A stretch of DNA of 38,381 nt from a virus (lineage: Duplodnaviria > Caudoviricetes), in the IMG/VR virus record IMGVR_UViG_3300037851_001505, positions 1-38,381 of that record; one strand, written 5' to 3'. Of the stretch, positions 1,295-20,447 are shown piece after piece. Position 1 is the first letter of the stretch. Every line of letters starts with the position of its first letter. The translations under genes and the position numbers were made by a program. Under the pieces are notes generated by a model. That model searched no databases. It was not told the DNA's origin and saw nothing but the letters and a program-made list of their open reading frames with translations.

Positions 1295-1434
1295 CTGAGC
1301 CGCATGAAACGCGCGGGTCAAACTTCCTCCCCTAAGCCCTGATCGGCGCGCAAGCGTCGGTCAGGGTGAGGGAGAGGATGGGCAGAGACAAAGCTTTGCC
1401 GCAACAACAAATTTTTTTGGAGAGGAAGGTTCAG

Positions 1435-2412
1435 ATGCAACAACTAGATTTGAGTCAAGTAAGAGTAGCGCCAACACTGCACTGGTCAGAGGATTTTGCA
1501 TTGTGGTTGCATGAGCATGATCGCATGCCGAAGACGATCTCTGCGTACCTGCAAGATGTGCGCCACTTTGGCAAGTTCTTTGAGCGCGTCAATACCCCCC
1601 TAGGGGAAGCACACATGCGGGGAGTTAAGTTCAGCCCCGATCAACTCAATGCCACTGACATCAAGGCGTACTTCGCCGGGCAAGATGCAGACAAGTCCGT
1701 TGCGCCGACGAGCCGGAACCGGCGGCTTGCATCGTTGCGGGTGCTGGTCGAGTGGGCAGTGGAGCGCGGCATCCTTGAGTATGACCCAACCGTGTGCATC
1801 AAGCGGGTGGCAGTGGAGTTGGCTCCACGCGACCGCTCGGTGGATGAAATGGTCAAACTCGAAGGCGCGGTGTTGTCGCGGAGTCACATCCGGGGCAAGA
1901 CTGCCCGGCACGATTTGCTCGGCTTACGGGACGAGGTGATCTGGACTCTGTTTGCGGAGGCGGGATTGCGGATCCACGAAATCGCCGGATTGGACATCAC
2001 CGACATCGACATCACCGGAAGCGAGATCAACGTGCTGGGGAAGGGTGCGAAGAAAGCGAAGGTGATCATCGCGTCTGCATTGGTGAGTGTGTTGCAGGGA
2101 TGGATGGCGCAGATGCCAATGTCGTTGGATGGGGCATTGATCACCGATTGGAATGGGAAGCGAATTTCGACCGGACAGATTCGGAGGCGATTGTATTTGA
2201 TCGGCGAAGCGGCAGGGGTGGACGTGAAGCCGCACGACTTGAGGCACACCTACGTTTATCGATTGCTGGACACGATGCTCGAGCAGGGCAAGCACATGCC
2301 AGTGGCGTTGGATGCGGCTCGCAAGCAGGCGCGGCATGGCGACGTGAAGACGACGATGATGTATCTGCGATCGCGCGAGAGCCAGATCCGCGCGGCGGTG
2401 GAGGCGATGTGA
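1435..2412 (+). CDS. Tyrosine recombinase, XerC/D-like
   Basis: N-terminal SAM-like domain (KTISAYLQDVRHF; SRNRRLASLR). Catalytic R (GLRIHE), K (GKGAK), HDLRH, H (ARHG), Y (TTMMY). ATG 1435 follows GGAGAGGAAGG. Confidence 0.92.
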   Translation: MQQLDLSQVRVAPTLHWSEDFALWLHEHDRMPKTISAYLQDVRHFGKFFERVNTPLGEAHMRGVKFSPDQLNATDIKAYFAGQDADKSVAPTSRNRRLASLRVLVEWAVERGILEYDPTVCIKRVAVELAPRDRSVDEMVKLEGAVLSRSHIRGKTARHDLLGLRDEVIWTLFAEAGLRIHEIAGLDITDIDITGSEINVLGKGAKKAKVIIASALVSVLQGWMAQMPMSLDGALITDWNGKRISTGQIRRRLYLIGEAAGVDVKPHDLRHTYVYRLLDTMLEQGKHMPVALDAARKQARHGDVKTTMMYLRSRESQIRAAVEAM

Positions 2413-4039: not shown

Positions 4040-7000
4040 ATGGATAACATCATTGAAGAGATCAAGGAACGGGTCAGGATCGAAGACCTGATCGAGGAGA
4101 GCGGCATCCCATTGGAGCGTCGGCATGGTCGCTATTTGCGATCAAGCGCGGGACGCGGACAGGGCTTGCACGGTCTGGTGATTGATACCTACAACAACAC
4201 GTATCACTTCAACGGGCAGGATGAGCACGGCGACGTTTTCAACTGGGTGATGAACCGGATGTACAAGGGCTGGGACTTCAAGGCGGCTCTTGAATTCTTG
4301 GCGAAGCGGATCGGGCTGGCTCTGCCTGATTACGGTGAGAAGAACATGCAAGCGCGGCTGGCAGTTCGGGCGCAGGAAGATGCGTTTCAGGTTGCGGCGC
4401 GAGTCTTTCACAAATGGTTGCTGAATAATGAAGCGGCGTTGACCTATGTGCGCGGGCGCGGGTTCAGTGATGAGACCATCGTCAGAGCGAAGATGGGATT
4501 TTCTGGGAGCGGTTCTGCTACTGACTTCAAAGAGATGGCGGCGGAATTTGCCTTGTACGGCGTTGACCCGACGAGCGCGGCGGCGGTGGCGATCACCGGA
4601 CTGCACCCTGCGAATAAGGCTGAAGGGGTGAGCGCATGGTGTCAGGCGCATGGCATTGAGCCGGATGGCGAGTGGTTGGATTGGGGGATGATACCGGGGA
4701 TGATGAGCAAGCGGACACCGCGGCTCGTTTATGCATCCCAGCTGGCAGGTCGGGTGATCTATTTGTTCGGGCGCAATCTCAAGATTCAAGCTGGCGGCGA
4801 AGTTGTCGGGAGCGATGATCCAAAATCGTATAACTTGAACAGCCGGTTGATCGGTTCGCGCAAGTTGTACTTCAATCCGCTGTATGGTCGGCGCGTTGAG
4901 GATGTTGTGCTGGTCGAGGGTCCCGCAGATGCGGAGACTCTGGGGCAATGGGGCATCGCGGCAATTGCCAACGGCGGAACAGCATGGAAAGACCATGAAG
5001 ATTTTTTGAAGGAACTACCGAAGCACCGCGATGAGCATGGACATGATCACGGTCATGATGCGATCTATCTTGGCGCGGATGCAGATGATGCCGGGCAAAA
5101 GGTGATCCTTGGGCGCGACGGCGAATTTCCATTGGCGGATGTTTTGGGACCGATGGTGCGCGTGTTGCGTTGGAAGGCAAAGGATGCAAACGACTGGCTC
5201 AAGGAGATGGTGAAGGAGGGTGTGACGGCGGAAGAGCAAGCCGAGCGGGTGCGCGAGCAGTTGGACAGAGCCAACCCGATCGTGGTGGAGATGGCGAAAC
5301 ATGCGGGACTGCTACCTGCTAAAAGCCAGAAGGCGATGAAGGCGGCGAAGCGCGCGGCGCAGGTGATCGCGCGGTTGGATAAGCGCGAGTTGAGCATCCT
5401 GCGCAAGGACATGGCTACTGCTATGTTCCCGGGTGCGAGCGATGCGTTGAGGCAGTTCAATAACTTGATCGGCGAGGAGCGCAAGGAAGCGAAAGAGGAA
5501 GATAAGCCGGATGTGATCGTTGAGATGCTGGGCGGATGGATGGCTCAGAAAGATGGCAAGGGCTGGTTGATTGAGTACACGTACGAGCCGGTTGAAAAGA
5601 AGGCGATGTTTGCTTTCCGCGATCCGGATGGTCGCATTGGGACGGCAAACTTCCTCGACATCGATGGGACGCGTTATTACCCGAAGACGCCGAATGCGCT
5701 GGTGATCGATGAAGGTATTTTGTTTCCAGCGGCATTGGGGAAAGAGAAGAGCACACGCGAGCTGGTGGCAATCGTCGAGTTGTTCATCGCGCGATATTTC
5801 CTGCTCGACAACAAGTTTGATTATCGCCTGGCGGCGTACTACGTTTTGCTGACTTGGCTGTATGACGCATTCGGCGCGTTGCCTTATTTGAGAGCGCAGG
5901 GCGATTATGGATCGGGCAAGTCGGAGTTGATGTTGCGCATTGGGCATGTGTGCTATCGGATGATGAAGACGAGCGGCGCAGGCTCCAGCTCGTCGCTGTT
6001 CCGCGCATTGCATGAGTATAGAGGCACAGCGTTTATGGATGAGATGGACTTGAGCCGAGGCGGGGATATGACGGACGACATCGTGAAGATTTTGAACATG
6101 GGCGCGATGAAGAGTCAGGCGAACATCTGGCGCACGAGCGAAGTGATGACCGCGAAAGGGACGCGTGATTTTGAGACGATCAGTTATTCGGTATATGGTC
6201 CCAAGCTGATCACGATGCGCGGGAAGTTTCACGACCAAGCGACGGAGAGCCGGTGCTTGACGTTCCGATTGATGGCGAAAGAAGCGATCGAGTTGAAACG
6301 CAAGGGCATCCCGTTGTTATTGAATCGTTCGTTCTACGATGAGGCGCGGGAGATTCGCAACCTGCTGTTGCATTGGCGGCTGAAGCGGTGGCAACCGGAA
6401 ATTCCGGCAACGGAAGATTTGATGGACTTGAGCGTGCCTGCGCGTTTGAATCAAGTGACGATGCCGCTGAAAGCGATCGCGCAGGACGATCCGGAATTGA
6501 TGAACGACATCGTGAAATTCGTCCGCGCATTGAACAACGAGTTGATCCTTGACCGATCGATGAAGCTGGATGCGCGTGTGATGGATGCGGTGGTGGCGAT
6601 CCTCGAGGACAAGCGGTATGCGCATCTGCTCTTTGAAGGGGAGGTGAATGGATACGGAGTCGTGAAGTATTCGTACACGCGGCACATTGCCGATGTGACG
6701 AATGCGCTCATAGACGAAATGAACATGAGCGACGAGAGAGACGACAAGGATGATGACAAGCGCCACAAAAAGAAAAAGGAAATCACCACCCAGACGGTGA
6801 GCGGCATTTGCCGCGAGACGTTGCAGTTCCACAGCCACCGACTCGGGAAGGGCTATGTAATCATCTTTGATACTGATCGTTTGGATACGCTGAAACTGCG
6901 GTATGGGCTGAATAAGGCGGGCGCTACGCCAGCGATGGCGGGGAATCCTGCTCAGGCGGTCTATCAGCCCGCGTTTGGCGAGGCGGAATCCGATGTCGAT

Positions 7001-7042
7001 GAACCGATGAACCCCGATGAACCTGATTCGGAGGGTGTATGA
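4040..7042 (+). CDS. DnaG-like primase fused to a C-terminal P-loop ATPase/helicase-like domain
   Basis: DnaG-type N-terminus (IIEEIKERVRIEDLI; HGDVFNWV; FKAALEFLA; YVRGRG). TOPRIM (VEGPAD, DADDAG, KDANDW). Walker A GDYGSGKS, Walker B FMDE. Confidence 0.85.
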   Translation: MDNIIEEIKERVRIEDLIEESGIPLERRHGRYLRSSAGRGQGLHGLVIDTYNNTYHFNGQDEHGDVFNWVMNRMYKGWDFKAALEFLAKRIGLALPDYGEKNMQARLAVRAQEDAFQVAARVFHKWLLNNEAALTYVRGRGFSDETIVRAKMGFSGSGSATDFKEMAAEFALYGVDPTSAAAVAITGLHPANKAEGVSAWCQAHGIEPDGEWLDWGMIPGMMSKRTPRLVYASQLAGRVIYLFGRNLKIQAGGEVVGSDDPKSYNLNSRLIGSRKLYFNPLYGRRVEDVVLVEGPADAETLGQWGIAAIANGGTAWKDHEDFLKELPKHRDEHGHDHGHDAIYLGADADDAGQKVILGRDGEFPLADVLGPMVRVLRWKAKDANDWLKEMVKEGVTAEEQAERVREQLDRANPIVVEMAKHAGLLPAKSQKAMKAAKRAAQVIARLDKRELSILRKDMATAMFPGASDALRQFNNLIGEERKEAKEEDKPDVIVEMLGGWMAQKDGKGWLIEYTYEPVEKKAMFAFRDPDGRIGTANFLDIDGTRYYPKTPNALVIDEGILFPAALGKEKSTRELVAIVELFIARYFLLDNKFDYRLAAYYVLLTWLYDAFGALPYLRAQGDYGSGKSELMLRIGHVCYRMMKTSGAGSSSSLFRALHEYRGTAFMDEMDLSRGGDMTDDIVKILNMGAMKSQANIWRTSEVMTAKGTRDFETISYSVYGPKLITMRGKFHDQATESRCLTFRLMAKEAIELKRKGIPLLLNRSFYDEAREIRNLLLHWRLKRWQPEIPATEDLMDLSVPARLNQVTMPLKAIAQDDPELMNDIVKFVRALNNELILDRSMKLDARVMDAVVAILEDKRYAHLLFEGEVNGYGVVKYSYTRHIADVTNALIDEMNMSDERDDKDDDKRHKKKKEITTQTVSGICRETLQFHSHRLGKGYVIIFDTDRLDTLKLRYGLNKAGATPAMAGNPAQAVYQPAFGEAESDVDEPMNPDEPDSEGV

Positions 7043-7310
7043 AAAATTTGTTTTGTTTTCCTGAGACTTGGCAAAAACCAACAAAACAAATGTTTTTTGC
7101 AGGGTTCCAAACGGGTTCATCAGGGTTCATCGGGTTCATCCAAGTTATACGAAGCGCGAAAAGTGCAAAAACAGGTCGTTTTTTGAAGTTGTCGATGAAC
7201 CCGATGAACTTCGATGAACTTTGATGTGATTCTGGGCTTTGATTTGCCTTGTGAAAAAGGGCGATGAATTTGGAAAAAGAGCGAAGTTCATCAATGTTCA
7301 TCGGTTCATC
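6998..7310. repeat. Iteron-like array, putative replication origin
   Basis: GATGAAC at 6998, 7006, 7016 and 7194, 7203, 7213; inverse GTTCATC at 7115, 7125, 7134 and 7286, 7296, 7304; A/T tracts in between. Confidence 0.75.
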
Positions 7311-11027: not shown

Positions 11028-11418
11028 CTTTCAGAAACGATTTGTCACGAAGATCGTGACGGGTGAGAAGTGTCAGACGATTCGCAAGCCGAGGAAGTAT
11101 CCGACGAAGCCCGGTCACATGATCTATATGTATACCGGACTGCGGACGAAGAACGCAGTGATGATTGCACGATCTCCATGCATTGAAGTGACGCCAATGA
11201 TGATTTTTCCTGAATGGAAAAAGATAACTAACTTGCTGACAGACAAACCGTGCTCCTTCGTAGAGATATTTCAAATTGCTTTGGACGATGGGTTCGATGA
11301 TATCGGTTCATTCTTCGGTTTCTTCACGACAGCCTACAAAGAAAACATTCTTACTATGGAAATCATCAAATGGAACCGCAACCTGCTCGAGGTGAACTAT
11401 GTTGAAGAACAGCGATGA
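11014..11418 (+). CDS. ASCH/PUA-like domain protein
   Basis: F..KIVTGEKCQTIR...PG..IYMYTGLRTK and IALDDGF motifs. Confidence 0.65.
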   Translation: MPAYNFQKRFVTKIVTGEKCQTIRKPRKYPTKPGHMIYMYTGLRTKNAVMIARSPCIEVTPMMIFPEWKKITNLLTDKPCSFVEIFQIALDDGFDDIGSFFGFFTTAYKENILTMEIIKWNRNLLEVNYVEEQR

Positions 11419-11911
11419 TCAGATTGTGGTCGAGAACAGCATGAGCGCGGAGTGGACGCGCCGCCTGCATGTGATGGGCAACAAGCCGCCGATTGATGGC
11501 TGGTGCGATTATGTTCCGGATGGTGTTGCGCGGGAGTTGAAGCGTTACACCGAAGCGGGTGTGCATCACTTGGAGATCGAATGGCGGGCGCGTGAGGCGA
11601 CGGTCTTGCGCTTTCAGGCGATGGAGTTCGCGCTGACGCGCCATGCGGTGGTGTGGGCGCTGGAGCCGGAGAACCGCGTGAGCGTTGAAGCGCAAAAAGC
11701 GATTGAGGCGTTCCGGCATTTTTACGGTCATGCCCCGGATAACATTTGCATTAAGCGTTTACCGCGCGGTGTGGATGACGGCGTTGCCCTCACCCTGCCC
11801 TCTCCCGATGGGAGAGGAGAGGAGATTTTGCTTATTCAGGCGGACTGGGTGCCGGAGGGCTTTCTCTCTGTGAACGATGCGGCACGGATTGTGTGGACGA
11901 AGGAGATTTAA
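11399..11911 (+). CDS. Hypothetical protein with an in-frame REP-like insertion
   Basis: GAGGTG RBS; 170 aa; CCCTCACCCTGCCCTCTCCCGATGGGAGAGG at 11787-11817. Confidence 0.65.
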   Translation: MLKNSDDQIVVENSMSAEWTRRLHVMGNKPPIDGWCDYVPDGVARELKRYTEAGVHHLEIEWRAREATVLRFQAMEFALTRHAVVWALEPENRVSVEAQKAIEAFRHFYGHAPDNICIKRLPRGVDDGVALTLPSPDGRGEEILLIQADWVPEGFLSVNDAARIVWTKEI

Positions 11912-11912
11912 C

Positions 11913-12185
11913 ATGAGCGAACTGGACGGGTTGGCTCAATGGAAGTGTGAGCATGGGCATGTGCTCGGGTTTGTGGAACGGCGCAAGCTGGATCGATATC
12001 ATGTGATGGTGTTGCTGGCTCTGCGGCAGGCGATTGACCTGCAGGCGGAGTCGCCGATTGAGCCGGACGTGAGCATGATCCTCGACGGCGGGGCGACGGT
12101 GATCTGCTCGGTGTGCCGCGAGACGCGGTACTTCAGCCCGTCGCAGGCGGCGCTGGATCGGATGCTGGCGAGGGTGGCGAAGTGA
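11913..12185 (+). CDS. Small zinc-ribbon-like protein
   Basis: WKCEHGHVLG...VICSVC; AAGGAG RBS. Confidence 0.7.
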   Translation: MSELDGLAQWKCEHGHVLGFVERRKLDRYHVMVLLALRQAIDLQAESPIEPDVSMILDGGATVICSVCRETRYFSPSQAALDRMLARVAK

Positions 12186-12418
12186 AGTCAGGTGACGTGT
12201 TAAAAACAATGCGACCGGGCGATCATGGCACCCGGAAATATTTGGAGAAATATGGCGCGCGCCTTGTCGCAGTGCGCTATCGTGGAAATGCACAGAGGCG
12301 TGTGCGTTCGACGACGATTGAGATTGTCGTGGAGGAGAAGTTTTGGATGCCGCATCGGAGATCGATCGATGCGATGTTGATGGGATGTCCAGTAATGGAC
12401 AGTCCGTCAAAAACATAG
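12182..12418 (+). CDS. Small basic hypothetical protein ending at the attI-like crossover
   Basis: GTG coupled to the previous stop; KTMRPGDHGTRKYLEKYGARLVAVRYR...TIEIVVEE; the G of its TAG stop is the G of G|TTATGC. Confidence 0.65.
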   Translation: MKSGDVLKTMRPGDHGTRKYLEKYGARLVAVRYRGNAQRRVRSTTIEIVVEEKFWMPHRRSIDAMLMGCPVMDSPSKT

Positions 12419-12424
12419 TTATGC
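12373..12424 (+). other. attI-like integron insertion site
   Basis: CAGTCCGTCAAAAACATAG|TTATGC heads the first cassette, with no attC hairpin upstream; TGTCCA-GTAA-TGGACA dyad at 12386-12401. Confidence 0.65.
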
Positions 12425-12436
12425 CCCTTTCCTAAG

Positions 12437-12465
12437 TTGACAAAGTACGCTAAATAGTGTACAAT
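12437..12465 (+). promoter_or_regulatory. Cassette-internal sigma70-type promoter with overlapping dyad
   Basis: TTGACA 12437-12442 / 17 bp / TACAAT 12460-12465; near-palindrome GTACGCTAAATAGTGTAC at 12445-12462. Confidence 0.75.
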
Positions 12466-12487
12466 CTAAGAAAGGAGATAATAAGCC

Positions 12488-12949
12488 ATGAAAGAAACAA
12501 TGATTCGATTGTCAGATTTTCGGGAAGTTTTGAAAGACATCCAGATTGCCGCCCGTGTTCAGCGTGGAGAAATATTTGATTTGGATACAGTTTGGGAAAG
12601 TCCCGAAATCGTCTTGCTCAAATGGAGCGATGAAGCAAACCCCAACGGAGAAGGCGGTTTTATTTATGATGATGGCGGATGGGGCTTTGCTGGCTTTCAT
12701 CTTCCTACAAAAACATTCCACCGCTATTTTGAAGGCGATAGAGAACATTGCTTGCGAGTAATTGAAGCGCAAACCGTGAGCAAGGCAGAGTTTGCTGAAA
12801 ATCAAGGTAAGGTTTGGTCGTGGATAAATGCTGAAACTGGCGAAAAAGAATTATTGCCAATTCCTTATTTGCCATTGAACACGCCAGAAGAATATGCGGC
12901 AGGAATTGAAATGTTGAAACAAATCAATGCTGGAGCAAAGAAGGGATGA
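12488..12949 (+). CDS. Cassette 1 gene A, hypothetical protein
   Basis: AAAGGAG RBS; 153 aa; no recognised motif. Confidence 0.8.
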   Translation: MKETMIRLSDFREVLKDIQIAARVQRGEIFDLDTVWESPEIVLLKWSDEANPNGEGGFIYDDGGWGFAGFHLPTKTFHRYFEGDREHCLRVIEAQTVSKAEFAENQGKVWSWINAETGEKELLPIPYLPLNTPEEYAAGIEMLKQINAGAKKG

Positions 12950-13191
12950 CTTCTTCTGAGTTTCTCGAATTTCTATCCAAAGAAGTGGCGGCGGCAGGCG
13001 GTCAAACGCTTTACGCCGTCCACGTTGGTATCAGCAAGCAGTATTTGAATGACATCTTGAAAGGCAGAAAAGAGCCTGGCGTGAAGTTGCTGAAAGCAAT
13101 CGGCTTCAAAAAGATTGTCACTTATGAACCCACACGGGGCATAACACTGCTTGCACAGGATGGCGGGGATTCTCCCGCCAAAAAAACTTAA
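12946..13191 (+). CDS. Cassette 1 gene B, Cro/XRE-type HTH protein
   Basis: GGQTLYAVHVGISKQYLNDILKGRKEPG; ATGA-coupled; reads into attC1. Confidence 0.8.
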   Translation: MTSSEFLEFLSKEVAAAGGQTLYAVHVGISKQYLNDILKGRKEPGVKLLKAIGFKKIVTYEPTRGITLLAQDGGDSPAKKT

Positions 13192-13266
13192 TCTACACTT
13201 TGGGCTTTATCTGGTCTCAGGCATTTTTCTACACCCGCCCGCCACCTGTAAAGCCAGCCGTTGGGC
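13139..13266 (+). other. attC site 1 (128 bp)
   Basis: R'' GCATAAC ... R' GTTGGGC; arms GCTTGCACAGGATGGCGGG / CCCGCCACCTGTAAAGC pair with two extra bases on the left arm. Confidence 0.9.
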
Positions 13267-13295
13267 GGCTCTCGCTCAACAAGGAGAATTGAAAA

Positions 13296-13562
13296 ATGTC
13301 AGATAAAAAACGCGTGTCTCGCGCCCCTCGTGGTTATCGAATTGTTTTGTGGGCTGATGGTTTTTATCATGTGTATTTCGGCGGTGAGTGCATTGATGAA
13401 GTTTTGTCTCGGTGGGCAGGCATAGCGGTTTGCAAAAAACATAAAGCCGCCCAACAAGGCGTGTACTGGACGCAGGGGATTCACTCCGCTGAAATGCTTT
13501 TATCTCATCCTGAATATTCAACTACCGCGCAGGCTTTATCTACGCCCGCCCTGCGCCAGTAA
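13296..13562 (+). CDS. Cassette 2 gene, hypothetical protein
   Basis: AAGGAG RBS at 13281; reads through attC2. Confidence 0.7.
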   Translation: MSDKKRVSRAPRGYRIVLWADGFYHVYFGGECIDEVLSRWAGIAVCKKHKAAQQGVYWTQGIHSAEMLLSHPEYSTTAQALSTPALRQ

Positions 13563-13576
13563 CGCAAAAGTTAGCA
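13449..13576 (+). other. attC site 2 (128 bp)
   Basis: R'' GCCCAAC ... R' GTTAGCA; arms GCGT(G)TACTGG(A)CGCAGGG / CCCTGCGCCAGTAACGC pair perfectly apart from two extrahelical bases. Confidence 0.9.
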
Positions 13577-13599
13577 AGCCTAAGAAAAGGAGTCTTACG

Positions 13600-13938
13600 A
13601 TGGAAAGAACAATGAATGGTCGTGAATTGCGAAATGCACTTTTACACATGGCGCAAAATATCCATGATGACGAAACCAAGCCCGTTCAAGAATGGCTTGA
13701 TGAAGTTCATGGAACTATTTTGGGAACGAGTGACGGGGCATTGTGCCAAAAAGAAATCGTGAAAACCGTTGCTCAAATGGTTCTTGATGAGCCCAAAATG
13801 CTCAGGGCTTTGTCTGGTGAAATTGGCAATTGGTCGCCAGCGGCATTGGCACGTGCTATTCGTGAATATGGCAAAGAATATGGTTTGTCACTCAGCCGAA
13901 AGGCTGAAGGGTGGCAGGTCGCATTTGCGGCTTGCTAA
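13600..13938 (+). CDS. Cassette 3 gene, hypothetical protein
   Basis: AAAAGGAG RBS; its TAA stop lies inside R'' (TGCTAAC), as is typical for cassettes. Confidence 0.8.
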   Translation: MERTMNGRELRNALLHMAQNIHDDETKPVQEWLDEVHGTILGTSDGALCQKEIVKTVAQMVLDEPKMLRALSGEIGNWSPAALARAIREYGKEYGLSLSRKAEGWQVAFAAC

Positions 13939-14062
13939 CACAGCGTCGAGCGGACAGGTTGGATTCTGTGCGGTTTACAGGCTTGATACTGGCTTCGGGC
14001 TTTTCCTGCTCTCAGGCATTGTTCCAGCCCGCCAACCTGTCCGCTCACGCAAACCGTTGGGC
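13933..14062 (+). other. attC site 3 (130 bp)
   Basis: R'' TGCTAAC ... R' GTTGGGC; arms GCGT(C)GAGCGGACAGGTTGG / CCAACCTGTCCGCTCACGC pair with one extrahelical base. Confidence 0.9.
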
Positions 14063-14083
14063 GTTGTAGAGTAAAATACAACT

Positions 14084-14224
14084 ATGTTCTTATTCAGCAG
14101 ACGCGAATCAAAGCGAGCGATGCGCAAGTTGAGCGAGCCCAACAACCCCTGGGGCGAAATAGTTTTTTATCTGTTCATAGGCTTGATCATTTTCGGCGTG
14201 ATTAAGTGGTTATTGACAAACTAG
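14084..14224 (+). CDS. 46-aa single-TM peptide
   Basis: Hand-translated MFLFSRRESKRAMRKLSEPNNPWGEIVFYLFIGLIIFGVIKWLLTN; TAAAAT at 14072-14077 just upstream, so possibly leaderless. Confidence 0.5.
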   Translation: MFLFSRRESKRAMRKLSEPNNPWGEIVFYLFIGLIIFGVIKWLLTN

Positions 14225-14241
14225 AACGTATATTCTAAAAT
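14213..14241 (+). promoter_or_regulatory. sigma70-type promoter with a LexA-box-like dyad in the spacer
   Basis: TTGACA 14213-14218 / 17 bp / TAAAAT 14236-14241; TAGAAC-GTAT-ATTCTA at 14222-14237. Confidence 0.75.
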
Positions 14242-14311: not shown

Positions 14312-14935
14312 ATGCCAGTAGCGCAACCAACCTATCAACTGCCGCTCGATCTGGATTTGCCGGAACCAGATGAGGAAAAGCAATCACCGGAAGAAGCGAA
14401 GATACGATCCGAGGCGGCGCGTAAGGCGCTCGAAAATATGTACGGGCGGATTGGCGCACCGCGCTGGATCGAAGAATACAACGAGCTGGTAAAGGGCGGA
14501 TGGCATTGGAGGGTGGCGGCATACATTGCCTGGGCATCAAGCCCGAAGGTGGCCCGAGAACCAAAGACACAAGATGACCTGGCGCGGATCCATTTGGGGT
14601 TAACGAGCGATCGCGCGATCAGCACATGGCGCAAGCGCAACCCCGCAATTGATGAGGTGGTGAGGATTATGCAGGCGGCTCCATTGTTCAAGCACCGCGC
14701 GGAAATATTCACCGCGCTCGTGGCAGTGGCGGTGAAGCCGGAATACAAGAGTCACAACGATCGCAAACTGGCGCTTGAGTTGATGGGCGATTACCTGCCC
14801 GCGAAGAAGGTGCTGGCGTCGCTCTCGAAGCGCGGGGATGACGACGATGTGTCCGCTTTGAGCGACGATCAACTTCAGGAACTAGCGAGAGCTTTGTCGA
14901 TAAGCGAGGATGACCATGACGATCACACCGGATAA
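14312..14935 (+). CDS. Terminase-small-subunit-like HTH protein, paralogue 1
   Basis: GGAGGTG RBS; WRVAAYIAWA..P...REPKTQDDLA...LGLTSDRAI..WRK shared with 19803-20447. Confidence 0.65.
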   Translation: MPVAQPTYQLPLDLDLPEPDEEKQSPEEAKIRSEAARKALENMYGRIGAPRWIEEYNELVKGGWHWRVAAYIAWASSPKVAREPKTQDDLARIHLGLTSDRAISTWRKRNPAIDEVVRIMQAAPLFKHRAEIFTALVAVAVKPEYKSHNDRKLALELMGDYLPAKKVLASLSKRGDDDDVSALSDDQLQELARALSISEDDHDDHTG

Positions 14936-16310
14936 GAGTAACGCGAACAAGGGTACGAAGCGGGGCAAGGAACTGCTCAAGCAATCACTGCAAGAACTGG
15001 GTGGAGGTCGATCCATACTGCTTGATAAAGATGGAAATATTATCGCTGGTAACAAGACCTTCGAAGCGGCGCAGGAACAGGGCTTGGACATCCGCATCGT
15101 TGAAGCTGGCAGAGGCGAGTTGATCGCGGTGCAGAGAAGCGATCTGGATTTGGATGATCCGAGCGGCGAAGCAAGGCGGCTGGCTTATCTCGACAATCGC
15201 GTGAGCGAGCTTGATCTGAATTGGGATGCAGAGCAGATCGCCGCGGACATGGAAGCGGGCATCGACCTTGAAGGCGCAGGCTTTCTCGAAGGCGAACTGC
15301 GCGAGATGATGGAGCAGGCTGGGCTTTTACAAGATGCTGGCACGGACCCGGGCGACCAAACCGATCGGGCGGACGAGCTGATCGAAAAATGGAAAGTGCA
15401 AAGCGGACAAGTGTGGGCGCTGGGAGAACATCGCTTGATCTGCGGTGACTCAACGATTGCGTCTTCAGCCGAGATTATCTTTGCAGGCGAACAAGCCTCA
15501 CTCGCTTTCACCAGCCCGCCGTATTGGGTGGGCAAGAGTTACGAAGGACAGACCAGCGAAGTAGAAATTGATGCTTTCATTTCGCAAATTGCCGATGTGA
15601 TGTGCAGTGTTGTTCGCAAAGATGAAAGTCGGATCGTGATCAACACTGGTACTGGGTTCACGACTGCGTTCGATAAAAAGGCGAAACGGCATGTGTTGCT
15701 GTTGGTCGATAAGTGGACGAATGCCCTGCGCGAGCGTGGATGGAATCTGCGGCATGTGAGACACTGGATCAAAGAAGGACAGTTGATGGCGACGTCGCCG
15801 CGAACCGATCTCATTGATCAGCATAATGAATTTTTGGCAACGTATGAAAACAAGGACGGCGAAGCAAAGCGGTTTGATGATCTATTCAACGACAGCGATG
15901 TAAGTATGCTGATGACGTTTTATCATCGCCAGGGGAAACAGCGCGGGCAGGAATGGACGGGATCATCGTGGTCATTGCGATCGTATTGGGATGACATCAA
16001 AGGGACCGCAAGGGCGAACGGTCATGTAGCGGCTTTTCCGGTTGAACTTCCACTACGGCATTTAATGTTGTACTCAAAGCGTGGTGAGATCGTGTTCGAG
16101 CCGTTCAGCGGATCGGGGACGACCATCATCGCTTGCGAAGTACTCAAGCGCCGGTGCCGGGCAATCGAGATCAACCCGGGCGATGTTGCGGCAACGCTGG
16201 AGCGATGGAACTTGATGACAGGATTGCAACCTGTGTTGTTGACCCCCCTGTCTGCTTCGCAGACATCCCCCCATTTTCAAGAGCGCGAAAATGGAGGGAA
16301 TCATGAGTGA
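14910..16310 (+). CDS. ParB-like N-domain plus beta-class DNA methyltransferase (SPPY)
   Basis: IIAGNKT...AYLDNR N-domain; HRLICGDS, FTSPPY, HVAAFP, FEPFSGSGTT. Confidence 0.9.
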   Translation: MTMTITPDKSNANKGTKRGKELLKQSLQELGGGRSILLDKDGNIIAGNKTFEAAQEQGLDIRIVEAGRGELIAVQRSDLDLDDPSGEARRLAYLDNRVSELDLNWDAEQIAADMEAGIDLEGAGFLEGELREMMEQAGLLQDAGTDPGDQTDRADELIEKWKVQSGQVWALGEHRLICGDSTIASSAEIIFAGEQASLAFTSPPYWVGKSYEGQTSEVEIDAFISQIADVMCSVVRKDESRIVINTGTGFTTAFDKKAKRHVLLLVDKWTNALRERGWNLRHVRHWIKEGQLMATSPRTDLIDQHNEFLATYENKDGEAKRFDDLFNDSDVSMLMTFYHRQGKQRGQEWTGSSWSLRSYWDDIKGTARANGHVAAFPVELPLRHLMLYSKRGEIVFEPFSGSGTTIIACEVLKRRCRAIEINPGDVAATLERWNLMTGLQPVLLTPLSASQTSPHFQERENGGNHE

Positions 16311-17535
16311 CTTGAAGTTTGACAAACACAATGCCAATCAAGGCACAGACAGAGGGCGTGACCTGCTCAAGCAATCACTCACGGAGTTGGGCGCAGGGCG
16401 ATCCGGACTCATCGATAAAGATGGCAACGTGATCGCAGGCAACAAGACTCTGGCGATGGCGCAGAAGCTTGGGCTGAAGGTGCGCATCGTGAAGACCGAC
16501 CGCGATGAGCTGGTCATGGTGCAACGCGATGATCTCGATCTCAACGATCCAACAGGCGAGGCGCGAAGGTTGGCATATCTCGACAACCGCGTGAGCGAGC
16601 TTGATCTGAATTGGGATGCCGATCAAGTTGCGGCGGATTTGCAGGCTGGCTTGGAATTATCCGCTGTCGGATTCTTGGACAAGGAACTGCAGGAACTGAT
16701 CAACTCGCTGGGGGCGGAGGGGCAAGTCGAAGCGGATGAGGCGGCTGAAGCGGAAGCGATCGCACACGCGGATGAATTGCAAGCGAAGTGGGGCGTCCAG
16801 GCGGGGCAGGTTTGGGAGTGCGGCGATCATCGGCTCATGTGCGGGGACTCAACGAACGCGGCGCACGTGGGGCAACTGGTGGGCACTGAGCAGGCAACCG
16901 TATGTTGGACCGATCCGCCCTGGAACGTTAACTATGGGGGGAGAGAGCATCCTTCGTGGAAGAGACGCTCGATGAAAAACGATAATCTGGGGGATAAGTT
17001 TCCGGCTTTCGTGAAAGCGGCAGTGGATAACATTTGGTCGGCATGTGTGCCGGGTGCGGTGATCTATTTAATGATGTCGGCGCAGGAGTGGCCCGTGATT
17101 GATAAGGCATTGCGCGACAAAGGCTTTCACTGGTCAAGCACGATCATCTGGGCGAAAAACCAATTGGTGCTGTCGAGTAAGGATTATCACACGCAGTATG
17201 AGCCGCTTTGGTATGGATGGAAGGGCGATGCGGCGCGGGTGCGTGAAGTGGTGGACCGCAAGCAGTCGGATGTGTGGCAGATCGATCGTCCCAAGCGATC
17301 GGAGGAACACCCGACGATGAAGCCGATCGAACTGGTGGAGAGAGCGTTGCGCAATTCAAGTTTGCCGGGCGACGTGGTGATCGATCCGTTTGGGGGAAGC
17401 GGAACAACGTTGATCGCGTGTGAACGAACGGGCAGGCGGTGCCGCACGATGGAACTTGATCCGGCTTACGCGGCGGTGGAGCTCGAGCGGTGGTCGTTGC
17501 TTACGGGAACTGCGCCGGTCTTGACTTCCTTTTGA
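16303..17535 (+). CDS. ParB-like N-domain plus beta-class DNA methyltransferase (DPPW)
   Basis: Same N-domain; HRLMCGDS, TDPPW, HPTMKP, DPFGGSGTT; GGAGG RBS before ATG 16303. Confidence 0.9.
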   Translation: MSDLKFDKHNANQGTDRGRDLLKQSLTELGAGRSGLIDKDGNVIAGNKTLAMAQKLGLKVRIVKTDRDELVMVQRDDLDLNDPTGEARRLAYLDNRVSELDLNWDADQVAADLQAGLELSAVGFLDKELQELINSLGAEGQVEADEAAEAEAIAHADELQAKWGVQAGQVWECGDHRLMCGDSTNAAHVGQLVGTEQATVCWTDPPWNVNYGGREHPSWKRRSMKNDNLGDKFPAFVKAAVDNIWSACVPGAVIYLMMSAQEWPVIDKALRDKGFHWSSTIIWAKNQLVLSSKDYHTQYEPLWYGWKGDAARVREVVDRKQSDVWQIDRPKRSEEHPTMKPIELVERALRNSSLPGDVVIDPFGGSGTTLIACERTGRRCRTMELDPAYAAVELERWSLLTGTAPVLTSF

Positions 17536-18997: not shown

Positions 18998-19806
18998 CAA
19001 TGATGACGCATTGGGTTGTGGTTCAGGCTCCACTGCGCGATGCTCCTGGCGGCAAAAAATATCTCGACTTGCCGCAGGGGGCAGTTGTGCGTTTAAGCGG
19101 CAAGCACGAGATGATTGACTATGCCGGTCAGGAAACAATCTGGGTTGAGGCAACGTTTGAGATTGGCACGAAGTTCTGGACGGGCTGGGTGTACTCAGGC
19201 TTTCTTGAACAACTGGTCATCTCACCGGAAATGGTCAGCATCCCGATCGGAACGCCGAGCCCGCAGGACGCGGCGCAATACTCCATCTGGGATGGCGTTG
19301 TGCAATACAACCTGTGCGGCGAGCTGTGCGTGTGCTTTATTGCTGAAGACAACATCGAAGGCATTCTGACCCAGTGGAAAATCAAACAGCCGAGTATGTA
19401 TCGGCGCGTGTTCGGGAGCGGCTTTGCGCGAGGCACAGACATCAGCGAACTGGATGAGATGCTGGCGATGTATGGATACAGAACCCCGTCGATCCGTTTT
19501 GCGGATGCGCTCAAAGATGCGGTGATCGGTCGTCCGCTGATCACGCCGCGCCGGGTGCAGATCATGTTGCGCACCTATCAAGCCATCGTCGGTGTGCGGA
19601 TTGATCACACTGGCTATCTGCGCAAGAGCGGCGTACTGCACTGGGTGGTGCTTGCGAGCGTTGAGCCGGAGGCGGTCAATCGCGGGTTGGCAAAAATCTA
19701 TAACCCGTTTACGAACCGGATGGAGCATTACACCTGGGACGAGTTGATCGCCTCGATGGGACCGTCGCCCTACGGGATTTGGGTTAAGCGGCAGGAAAAC
19801 CTATGA
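18994..19806 (+). CDS. SH3-like domain plus C39/papain-like peptidase, candidate endolysin
   Basis: APLRDAPG...WVE...TGWVYSGFL (SH3b-like); NLCG (Cys), LHWVV (His), IYNP (Asn). Confidence 0.6.
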   Translation: MTMMTHWVVVQAPLRDAPGGKKYLDLPQGAVVRLSGKHEMIDYAGQETIWVEATFEIGTKFWTGWVYSGFLEQLVISPEMVSIPIGTPSPQDAAQYSIWDGVVQYNLCGELCVCFIAEDNIEGILTQWKIKQPSMYRRVFGSGFARGTDISELDEMLAMYGYRTPSIRFADALKDAVIGRPLITPRRVQIMLRTYQAIVGVRIDHTGYLRKSGVLHWVVLASVEPEAVNRGLAKIYNPFTNRMEHYTWDELIASMGPSPYGIWVKRQENL

Positions 19807-20447
19807 AAGTCAGAATCATCTCGCAACTGGAACTGGAAGGCTTCGCCGAAGCGATCAAAGATGCGGATGCAGAGGGCGGCAACTTCAAGCCGTTATCGGT
19901 TGCCGAGATTCGTGAGCGGAGTATGGCGGCGCGGACAGTGCTTGAAACTCTCAAAAACGCCACCGCACAGCCGCAGTGGTTTGACCAATATCACCGCTTA
20001 ATCAACGCTGGTTTGCCGTGGCGTGTGGCGGCATACATTGCTTGGGCGACCATGCCGAAGGAACACCGCGAGCCAAAGACTCAAGACGAACTCGCACAGA
20101 AGGTGCTGGGATTGACAAGCGATCGCGCGATTGCATCGTGGCGCAAGAAATATCCGGGCATTGACCAATTGATCGCTGACTTACAGGCAGAGTCTTTGAT
20201 GGAATACCGTCCGGCGGCGTTTCGCGCGTTGGGCGAGATGGCGACCAAGGAACACTATCGCGCCGCGCCGGATCGCAAATTGTTTTTCGAGATGACGCGC
20301 GATTACACCCCGCGTCAAAAAATCGAAAGCGACAATGTCATTCGAAGAACGGATGACATGAGCAATGTGAGCGAAGCGGACCTGCTGGCGATGAGCGGCA
20401 AGCAAAACACACTGAAGCCCGCAACCGAAGACGGTGACGATGAGTAA
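19803..20447 (+). CDS. Probable terminase small subunit (HTH), paralogue 2
   Basis: Directly upstream of TerL; HTH-like KTQDELAQKVLGLTSDRAIASWRK. Confidence 0.7.
   Translation: MKVRIISQLELEGFAEAIKDADAEGGNFKPLSVAEIRERSMAARTVLETLKNATAQPQWFDQYHRLINAGLPWRVAAYIAWATMPKEHREPKTQDELAQKVLGLTSDRAIASWRKKYPGIDQLIADLQAESLMEYRPAAFRALGEMATKEHYRAAPDRKLFFEMTRDYTPRQKIESDNVIRRTDDMSNVSEADLLAMSGKQNTLKPATEDGDDE

Follow-up and report, generated by a model that had tools for sequence, protein, structure and literature searches.

An integron gene-cassette array headed by an attI-like docking site, and lacking an integron integrase (IntI) of its own, lies within the genome of a tailed phage (Caudoviricetes). The stretch analysed, called the window below, is the IMG/VR provirus record IMGVR_UViG_3300037851_001505 (38,381 bp, 93% complete), in which the array (12418..14062) follows the early genes and precedes a conserved gene at 14312. 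By the IntegronFinder definition, as given in the available text of PMC4889954, it is an attC-site cluster without an integron integrase (CALIN): the record holds three attC sites and neither an IntI nor a remnant of one. No intI adjoins the array, both flanks of which are sequenced, so that it is not a complete integron. The reading that is considered probable, while well short of secure, is an integron platform without an enzyme, whose attI-like site and three cassettes would be loaded and removed in trans by a chromosomal IntI of the likely Anaerolineae host. The initial annotation, made from the letters alone, had described a phage that has no IntI and carries, where the early genes give way to the late ones, cassettes inserted at G|TT; this description holds.

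The three attC sites, all on the + strand, are attC1 (13139..13266, 128 bp, 55.4 bits; its bottom strand is the predicted substrate), attC2 (13449..13576, 128 bp, 43.4 bits) and attC3 (13933..14062, 130 bp, 55.3 bits). These scores come from a covariance model built on 23 attC sites of intI-linked Anaerolineae chromosomal arrays, drawn from 20 stretches beside intI genes in genomes of the class of an Anaerolineae metagenome-assembled genome, with no phage site included. The bottom strands of all three match it (E 1.8e-11 to 1.3e-8), the next match in the window scoring 15.6 bits (E 0.058), which is the outcome that the initial annotation had anticipated for such a search. None of the three alignments to the 16-pair model shows a non-standard pair, in keeping with the expected bottom-strand layout of R and L boxes paired around an unpaired spacer, with extrahelical bases and a variable terminal structure; among the host sites both-side changes occur in 10 of the 16 pairs, a count that leans towards the modelled structure, because the training sites were picked with a purpose-built attC scanner and the structure was set by hand. 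The paired arms claimed for all three sites are thus borne out by the covariance model, while unconstrained folding returns the full hairpin for attC3 only, the minimum-energy folds of attC1 and attC2 differing from it in part. The extrahelical base that comes first agrees with host sites, being G in attC3 and C in the other two, and the ends (AAC in R'', GTT in R') and lengths fall within the definition available in PMC2727003, namely AAC and GTT at the ends and 57-142 nt.

Comparison with host integron attC sites, also proposed at the outset, points to the same family. The model contains host sites alone, the family of attC3 is found in Anaerolineae chromosomes, and attC3 itself is 75% identical to an attC of the integron of host genome G081. 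At the DNA level, matches confined to attC (mostly attC3) were found in 19 of 401 genomes of the class, with up to 80% identity. The internal motifs that the initial annotation saw shared by the three sites mark one attC subfamily only: a degenerate pattern derived from them has no match in 11 family loci. The scanner itself was set aside for counting, having produced false matches (for example at 6998-7150 of the window) and missed real sites, and attC counts therefore rest on the covariance model.

The cassette boundaries are as precise as the sites. Cassette 1 (12418..13259, 842 bp) holds its own promoter, a gene for 153 aa and a helix-turn-helix (HTH) gene; cassette 2 (13260..13569, 310 bp) holds an open reading frame (ORF, 13296-13562) that extends through attC2; and cassette 3 (13570..14055, 486 bp) holds an ORF (13600-13938) that ends in R''. 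Each cassette start is the reverse complement of its own R'' end over 10, 11 and 11 exact bases, respectively, and the six motifs quoted for these ends in the initial annotation each occur once, at exactly the coordinates given there. By a naive estimate, the chance of 7+8+8 complementary bases beyond GTT is about 1e-14. All cassette ORFs lie on the + strand and face their attC, as expected of integron gene cassettes. Such ORFs, including 12946-13191 and 13296-13562 in the window and many in relatives, often lack a stop before R'' and are read through attC, so that the site adds a protein tail. Downstream of the last attC, at 14056-14143, a 7-base start has its reverse complement 80 bases further on, without a hairpin, which is a possible remnant of a fourth cassette; a similar remnant is seen in a relative (L005, about 1372-1601).

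The crossover G|TT at 12418, whose character the initial annotation had missed, is attI-like in sequence. The docking site (12386..12420, + strand) consists of an inverted repeat TGTCCA/TGGACA (12386-12401) followed by GTCCGTCAAAAACATAGTT; no attC-model match precedes 12418, and the site, which is not a hairpin, heads the array. Host attI sites were defined without any pattern, as the GTT complementing the R'' of the first attC, and their profile covers the 16 preceding bases. From 16 loci 14 were kept (L155 and L158 were dropped as too far from intI), including L156, which is probably not an attI. Under this profile 12418 ranks first among the 1,236 GTTs of the window, and the first-cassette G|TT also ranks first in the integrase-less L005, L090, L093, L015 and L020. 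Integrase-less members of the phage family carry host-type attI, which favours a borrowed host IntI. An earlier profile was replaced, its host-site pattern having been chosen after the phage sites had been seen (17 of 29 loci); with it, too, 12418 came top in the window, scoring 15.4 where 30 shuffles reached 15.2 at most. A TGTCYA...TRGACA repeat was looked for at the attI of 29 host intI loci and found in none.

The site is carried by the end of a small gene. OrfX (12182..12418, + strand, 78 aa) has a TAG stop at 12416-12418 that supplies the G of the crossover. It belongs to a large family, with 1,620 relatives at E<=0.001, and short relatives stop on or just before the same type of site in L012, L013, L014, L015, L018, L020, L031, L032 and L039. 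Such sites occur in a second family phage (L014, the same as L090), a Caldilineaceae prophage (L012), Anaerolineae genomes and metagenome contigs; the model finds attC downstream of them in L090, L015, L017, L018, L020, L031/L043 and L046. At L012 the model detects no attC downstream, yet the cassette start matches at 10 of 10 positions. Different cassettes follow the matching attI-like site in L090 and L020.

OrfX itself may be a mere carrier of that site. The idea that it is a regular integron gene found no support: it stands beside intI in two of seven full-length loci and in none of 130 loci around integrase hits. It is present in 13 of 401 genomes of the class, has no Pfam family, and its confident structure model returned no fold match (best Z 3.1), a result that should not be taken as evidence of a new fold. 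In chromosomes of the Anaerolineae class (L013, L031, L032, L039, L041, L043, L046), a promoter, a shortened OrfX, an attI-like site and cassettes follow one another without intI nearby, in three copies in G190, and look like satellite attI platforms. Similar integrase-less modules occur in the host, and the OrfX-attI module of the phage probably derives from there. A search of 11800-12418 for a cassette promoter (Pc) found no sigma-70-like site on the + strand; one lies inside cassette 1.

Signs of cassette turnover come from the contigs of one sequencing run, X1. About 75% of the run was read, as assembled contigs rather than raw reads; X1 is probably the source of the window and is therefore not independent evidence. 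Five overlapping contigs cover 12250-13750 without a mismatch, which answers the concern about chimeric assembly raised in the initial annotation, and contigs break at 12421 and 13569. A further contig of 55 bp, at depth 3, joins 12392-12416 to 13569-13598, again without a mismatch. The junction omits 1,152 bp, exactly cassettes 1 and 2, ends at the G|TT of 12418 and the G|TT of attC2 at 13570, and has five shared bases, GTT among them. Depth is 11.6 and 11.3 in the flanks and 8.3 and 9.6 in the skipped part, the bubble to be expected were cassettes 1 and 2 lacking from about a quarter of copies. The two forms may be related by insertion of a two-cassette circle at attI or by excision between attI and attC2. 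Loss would require attI x attC recombination, which is possible but less efficient. Gain of both cassettes at attI as one circle agrees with the canonical reaction of attC x attI described in the available text of PMC2727003 and PMC8618304.

The same locus in related phages varies in content. With the protein of the 14312 gene, 80 viral loci were fetched; they were not de-replicated, and many matched the paralogue beside the large-terminase gene terL. The model finds 32 attC matches in 13 of the 80 loci (two of which, L110 and L111, are apparently one phage), all in a single orientation and all upstream of the small-terminase-like (terS-like) gene. The comparison of related phages suggested in the initial annotation therefore gives the pattern it had looked for, the region before the terminase genes being empty or filled with other cassettes; in two of the 25 relatives with both anchors visible, the gap is just 126-161 bp. 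One relative, L090/G405, is a complete genome with terminal repeats; it lacks IntI and carries three other cassettes behind OrfX and the same site. Among the 49 intervals between neighbouring attC sites, 38 keep at least 9 of 10 matches between start and R'', and some of the remaining 11 probably skip an unseen attC. In L011 (the same as L093), at about 7113-7140 and right after its attC, there is a single repeat, without an array, that resembles a type I-E CRISPR repeat and is possibly an RNA anti-CRISPR candidate.

Cassette 1 looks like a self-regulated unit. Its promoter-like site (12437..12465, + strand; TTGACA-17-TACAAT, 11 of 12 consensus positions) has a palindrome between the boxes that is kept in L111, L175, L176 and the phage Rctr41k, and this palindrome is likely to be the operator for the HTH protein of the cassette. 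The gene for 153 aa (12488..12949, + strand) has a single homologue, 97% identical, and no family. The HTH gene (12946..13191, + strand), which reads through into attC1, scores just below the cut-off for HTH_3, has weak PHROG repressor matches, and is represented by copies 81-91% identical in other phages. Family searches with the four cassette genes of the window returned no family for three of them. The head of cassette 1 and its HTH gene recur in L111, L175, L176 and Rctr41k, in first or later position, and the five copies are mosaic, middle genes of three families being variously combined with attC of three types: Rctr41k, for instance, has nearly the attC1 of the window (5 of 128 positions differ from its first attC) and a different middle gene. 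Two other runs contain close copies that differ at 10 of 402 bases and at 16 of 502, and these start exactly at the position of 12418, behind attC right arms. In L176 the leader of cassette 2 stands before a different gene. Cassettes are probably reshaped by homologous recombination as well.

The cassette pool looks phage-shared, judging by where its genes recur. Among the genes on relatives' cassettes are DNA methyltransferases and small genes of phage type; 6 of 26 tested match PHROGs. The cassette genes of the window were found only in viral contigs and unassigned contigs. The initial annotation had suggested that the phage could ferry cassettes between hosts; this finds no support, the cassette genes of the window having been found in none of the 401 Anaerolineae genomes searched, which are themselves incomplete. 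Comparison of 95 phage cassette frames with 20 host regions gave only attC-encoded stretches and one methyltransferase match at 37%.

Under the favoured reading of an enzyme-less platform served by the host, the 12418 site, as double-stranded DNA, would be the partner with which IntI recombines the folded bottom strand of a circle's attC, and new cassettes would therefore enter in first position. Their expression would depend on the early operon of the phage and, for cassette 1, on the HTH-controlled promoter that it carries, and their genes would be drawn from a pool common to family phages, some of which encode IntI at the same place. A host enzyme is favoured because IntIs recombine their own attI (PMC2727003, in its available text), because the 12418 site is of host type, and because an IntI above cut-off is present in 64 of 201 genomes of the class. 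Several points weigh against this reading. The case for recombination is a sequence-based one, and 7% of the provirus is missing. The host assignment comes from the likeness of attC and attI and from family matches in 2 of 401 genomes. The attI score of 12418 is modest (10.3, runner-up 9.6), and at the OrfX locus L012 the site ranks just 3 of 339 under the host profile. The short variant rests on one low-depth contig from one run, with 25 bases on its short side, and neither a circle junction nor a single-cassette intermediate was seen in the X1 contigs, which drop rare forms. Among the relatives with both anchors visible, only 2 of 25 have attC, which makes arrays the minority state. Finally, Rctr41k, with its own intact IntI, has cassette 1 as its first cassette, which means that cassettes of this type have been within reach of a phage enzyme.

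This last point leads to the strongest competitor, in which the same platform is served not by the chromosome but by a co-infecting or co-resident family phage with an IntI of the Rctr41k type. A true IntI, co-oriented with the cassettes and with an attI right after its stop, lies in the array region of L217, L220, L231, L187 and Rctr41k. It scores 420-442 bits in L217, L220 and L231 and 383 bits in Rctr41k, and is free of internal stops in these four, while L187 has one in-frame TAG. Rctr41k (Virus Rctr41k, KX853513.1; L279:4002-9423) combines its IntI, annotated in GenBank as xerD/integrase-like, with six attC. The shared cassette 1 with its nearly identical attC1, and the confinement of cassette genes to phages, also speak for an enzyme of this source. 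The attI behind the phage IntI genes, however, differs from the host type, ranking 121 of 563, 76 of 503, 5 of 497 and 6 of 235 under the host profile on which the window site ranks first, and host IntI is common in the class. A phage-borne enzyme is regarded as unlikely.

The phage integrases appear to form lineages of their own. In a quick tree the viral IntIs fall into two groups (SH-like approximate likelihood-ratio support, SH-aLRT, of 100 each) apart from 22 host IntIs. The tree has 11 rows labelled as family phages; for L190, L191, L193, L194 and L230 the 8 kb around the gene show no family marker of the early region, and for L188 and L197 they show just one weak match each. L188 and L189 have an attI sequence common to both and different first cassettes. 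At L175:2389-3375 (G402) a phage IntI carries one in-frame TAG; an equal-length product of 219 aa is on record from three contigs, so the TAG-bearing gene may be a real allele.

A less probable alternative is that OrfX, attI and cassettes were acquired once as frozen cargo, and that later variation reflects homologous or microhomology recombination between phages. The mosaicism of cassette 1 does look like homologous recombination in the HTH gene, and the variant junction has 5 bases of microhomology. That junction nevertheless falls on two G|TT crossovers, cassette 1 has other copies whose first base is exactly the G behind attC arms, and the start/R'' match is kept in the 38 intervals noted above, so that such a history is judged improbable.

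The phage also has an XerC-like integrase (1366..2412, + strand), the sole tyrosine recombinase in the record, and it could be supposed to move the cassettes. It is not an IntI: its TIGR02249 score is 42 bits, far below the cut-off of 265, in agreement with the initial annotation that the window has none, its product is 23% identical to a host IntI, and a six-frame search of the record found no other tyrosine recombinase. Movement of the cassettes by this enzyme is very improbable, since the attC sites belong to the host family and are of the canonical IntI type, the gene lies 10 kb away, the provirus needs an integrase for its own insertion, and relatives have a true IntI at the array. Least credible of all, and already largely refuted, is an origin in chance hairpins or in an assembly error that fused integron DNA of the host with a phage contig: assemblies often break at integron arrays, as the X1 contigs do at the two positions given, but the model E-values are 1e-8 or better, overlapping contigs without mismatch lead from phage genes through the array at even depth, and the layout is repeated in independent phages.

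Beyond the enzyme-less platform itself, a broader scheme can be put forward tentatively, as an idea more doubtful than likely. An Anaerolineae phage family might have domesticated integrons for accessory-gene exchange, either with phage-specific IntI clades and their own attI or with host-type attI, often on the OrfX module, and a borrowed host enzyme; the pool would be largely separate from that of the host, cassette gain and loss would be active in nature, and new cassettes would arise by swapping genes into reusable leader/attC frames. If true, such swapping would be a visible route of cassette genesis, and the mosaic cassette 1 offers a handle on the origin of new cassettes. The family also provides natural pairs, with and without their own IntI and with two attI types, for the study of integrase-attI specificity. 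Integrons are seen as devices with which bacteria capture genes, often for use against phages; if the favoured reading is confirmed, phages can exploit host IntI to reshuffle their own accessory genes.

The surroundings of the array are those of a tailed phage, with integrase, primase and FtsK-like early genes, then two methyltransferases, then terminase, head and tail genes. The array forms a dip in GC content (44-49% against about 55%). The left anchor of the variable region is a small Cys-rich conserved phage gene (11913..12185, + strand), homologues of which, at 29-45% identity, lie upstream of the terS-like gene in 25 of the 80 family loci and immediately precede intI in L217, L220 and L231. 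The right anchor (14312..14935, + strand) has no family match and is probably terS-like, since its paralogue sits before terL. The paralogous terS-like genes (14312-14935 and 19803-20447) bracket two tandem ParB-like/methyltransferase genes (14910-17535), and this duplication is common within the phage family. Within the ORF 11399-11911, at 11786-11817, there is a short palindromic repeat found in unrelated contigs at high depth, like a repetitive extragenic palindrome (REP) but in coding sequence. An Rfam search of the window gave no match.

The region is closed by a conserved promoter-like site (14213..14241, + strand; 11 of 12 consensus positions) in which a GAAC-N4-GTTC-like box, with one mismatch in the window, lies between the -35 and -10 hexamers; this layout recurs in 14 relatives. 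Chloroflexota use the GAAC-N4-GTTC LexA motif. It is described as the LexA motif of Firmicutes and Actinobacteria in the available text of PMC3323433. If functional, the LexA-like box would place the late-region promoter under SOS control.

Phage-borne arrays have been surveyed before. Qi, Rajabal, Ghaly, Tetu and Gillings (2023; PMC9892861, cited here from its available text) screened 10,705 phage genomes and reported 3 complete integrons, 1 In0 and 17 CALINs. The CALINs were rare and scattered, none being from Chloroflexota phages, and illegitimate capture was suggested; IntI1 activity was shown on five phage attC sites, in assays with IntI1 in E. coli only, and the available text gives no sign of CALIN activity in the phage itself. 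The survey excluded partial genomes, and Rctr41k is labelled partial. The rarity stated in the initial annotation is thus supported, but the novelty is lower than it implied, with 17 phage attC clusters already in print. The openly accessible literature, which leaves subscription journals uncovered, yielded neither a publication on Chloroflexota phages with attI-bearing or active integrons nor one that names Rctr41k.

The array is a real member of the CALIN class. Like the published CALINs, for example that of Tetrasphaera phage TJE1 with 3 attC, it has at least two co-oriented attC and single-gene cassettes in a phage without intI, and DNA methyltransferases occur among the cassettes of its relatives. 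Unlike those CALINs as described in the available text, it is headed by a host-type attI, and its family varies in content at one place, with a precise gain or loss form in one sample. Direct precedent for an attI-bearing phage CALIN exists in the Shewanella prophage M16-3 of the same survey, which has a complete integron plus one CALIN, both of them with attI, and so shares with the window an attI-headed array without its own integrase in a prophage. M16-3, however, is a cryptic prophage with IntI elsewhere in the same prophage and, in the available text, no demonstrated cassette turnover, whereas the window has no IntI in the sequenced 93% and its arrangement recurs in a phage family. The sedentary chromosomal integrons of Anaerolineae (for example G081 and L160) share its attC family (129-130 bp) and attI type, but differ in having a divergent intI beside attI. 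The complete integrons of phages (Rctr41k; L217, L220, L231, L187) share its place after the 11913 homologue, its attC family and cassette 1, but they have a co-oriented intI with a different attI after its stop where the window has OrfX and a host-type attI. What the array adds to the known types is an integrase-less, attI-headed arrangement whose place is fixed within a phage family and for which one sample gives evidence of turnover: new here are the attI platform with in-sample gain or loss and the phage-shared cassette pool.

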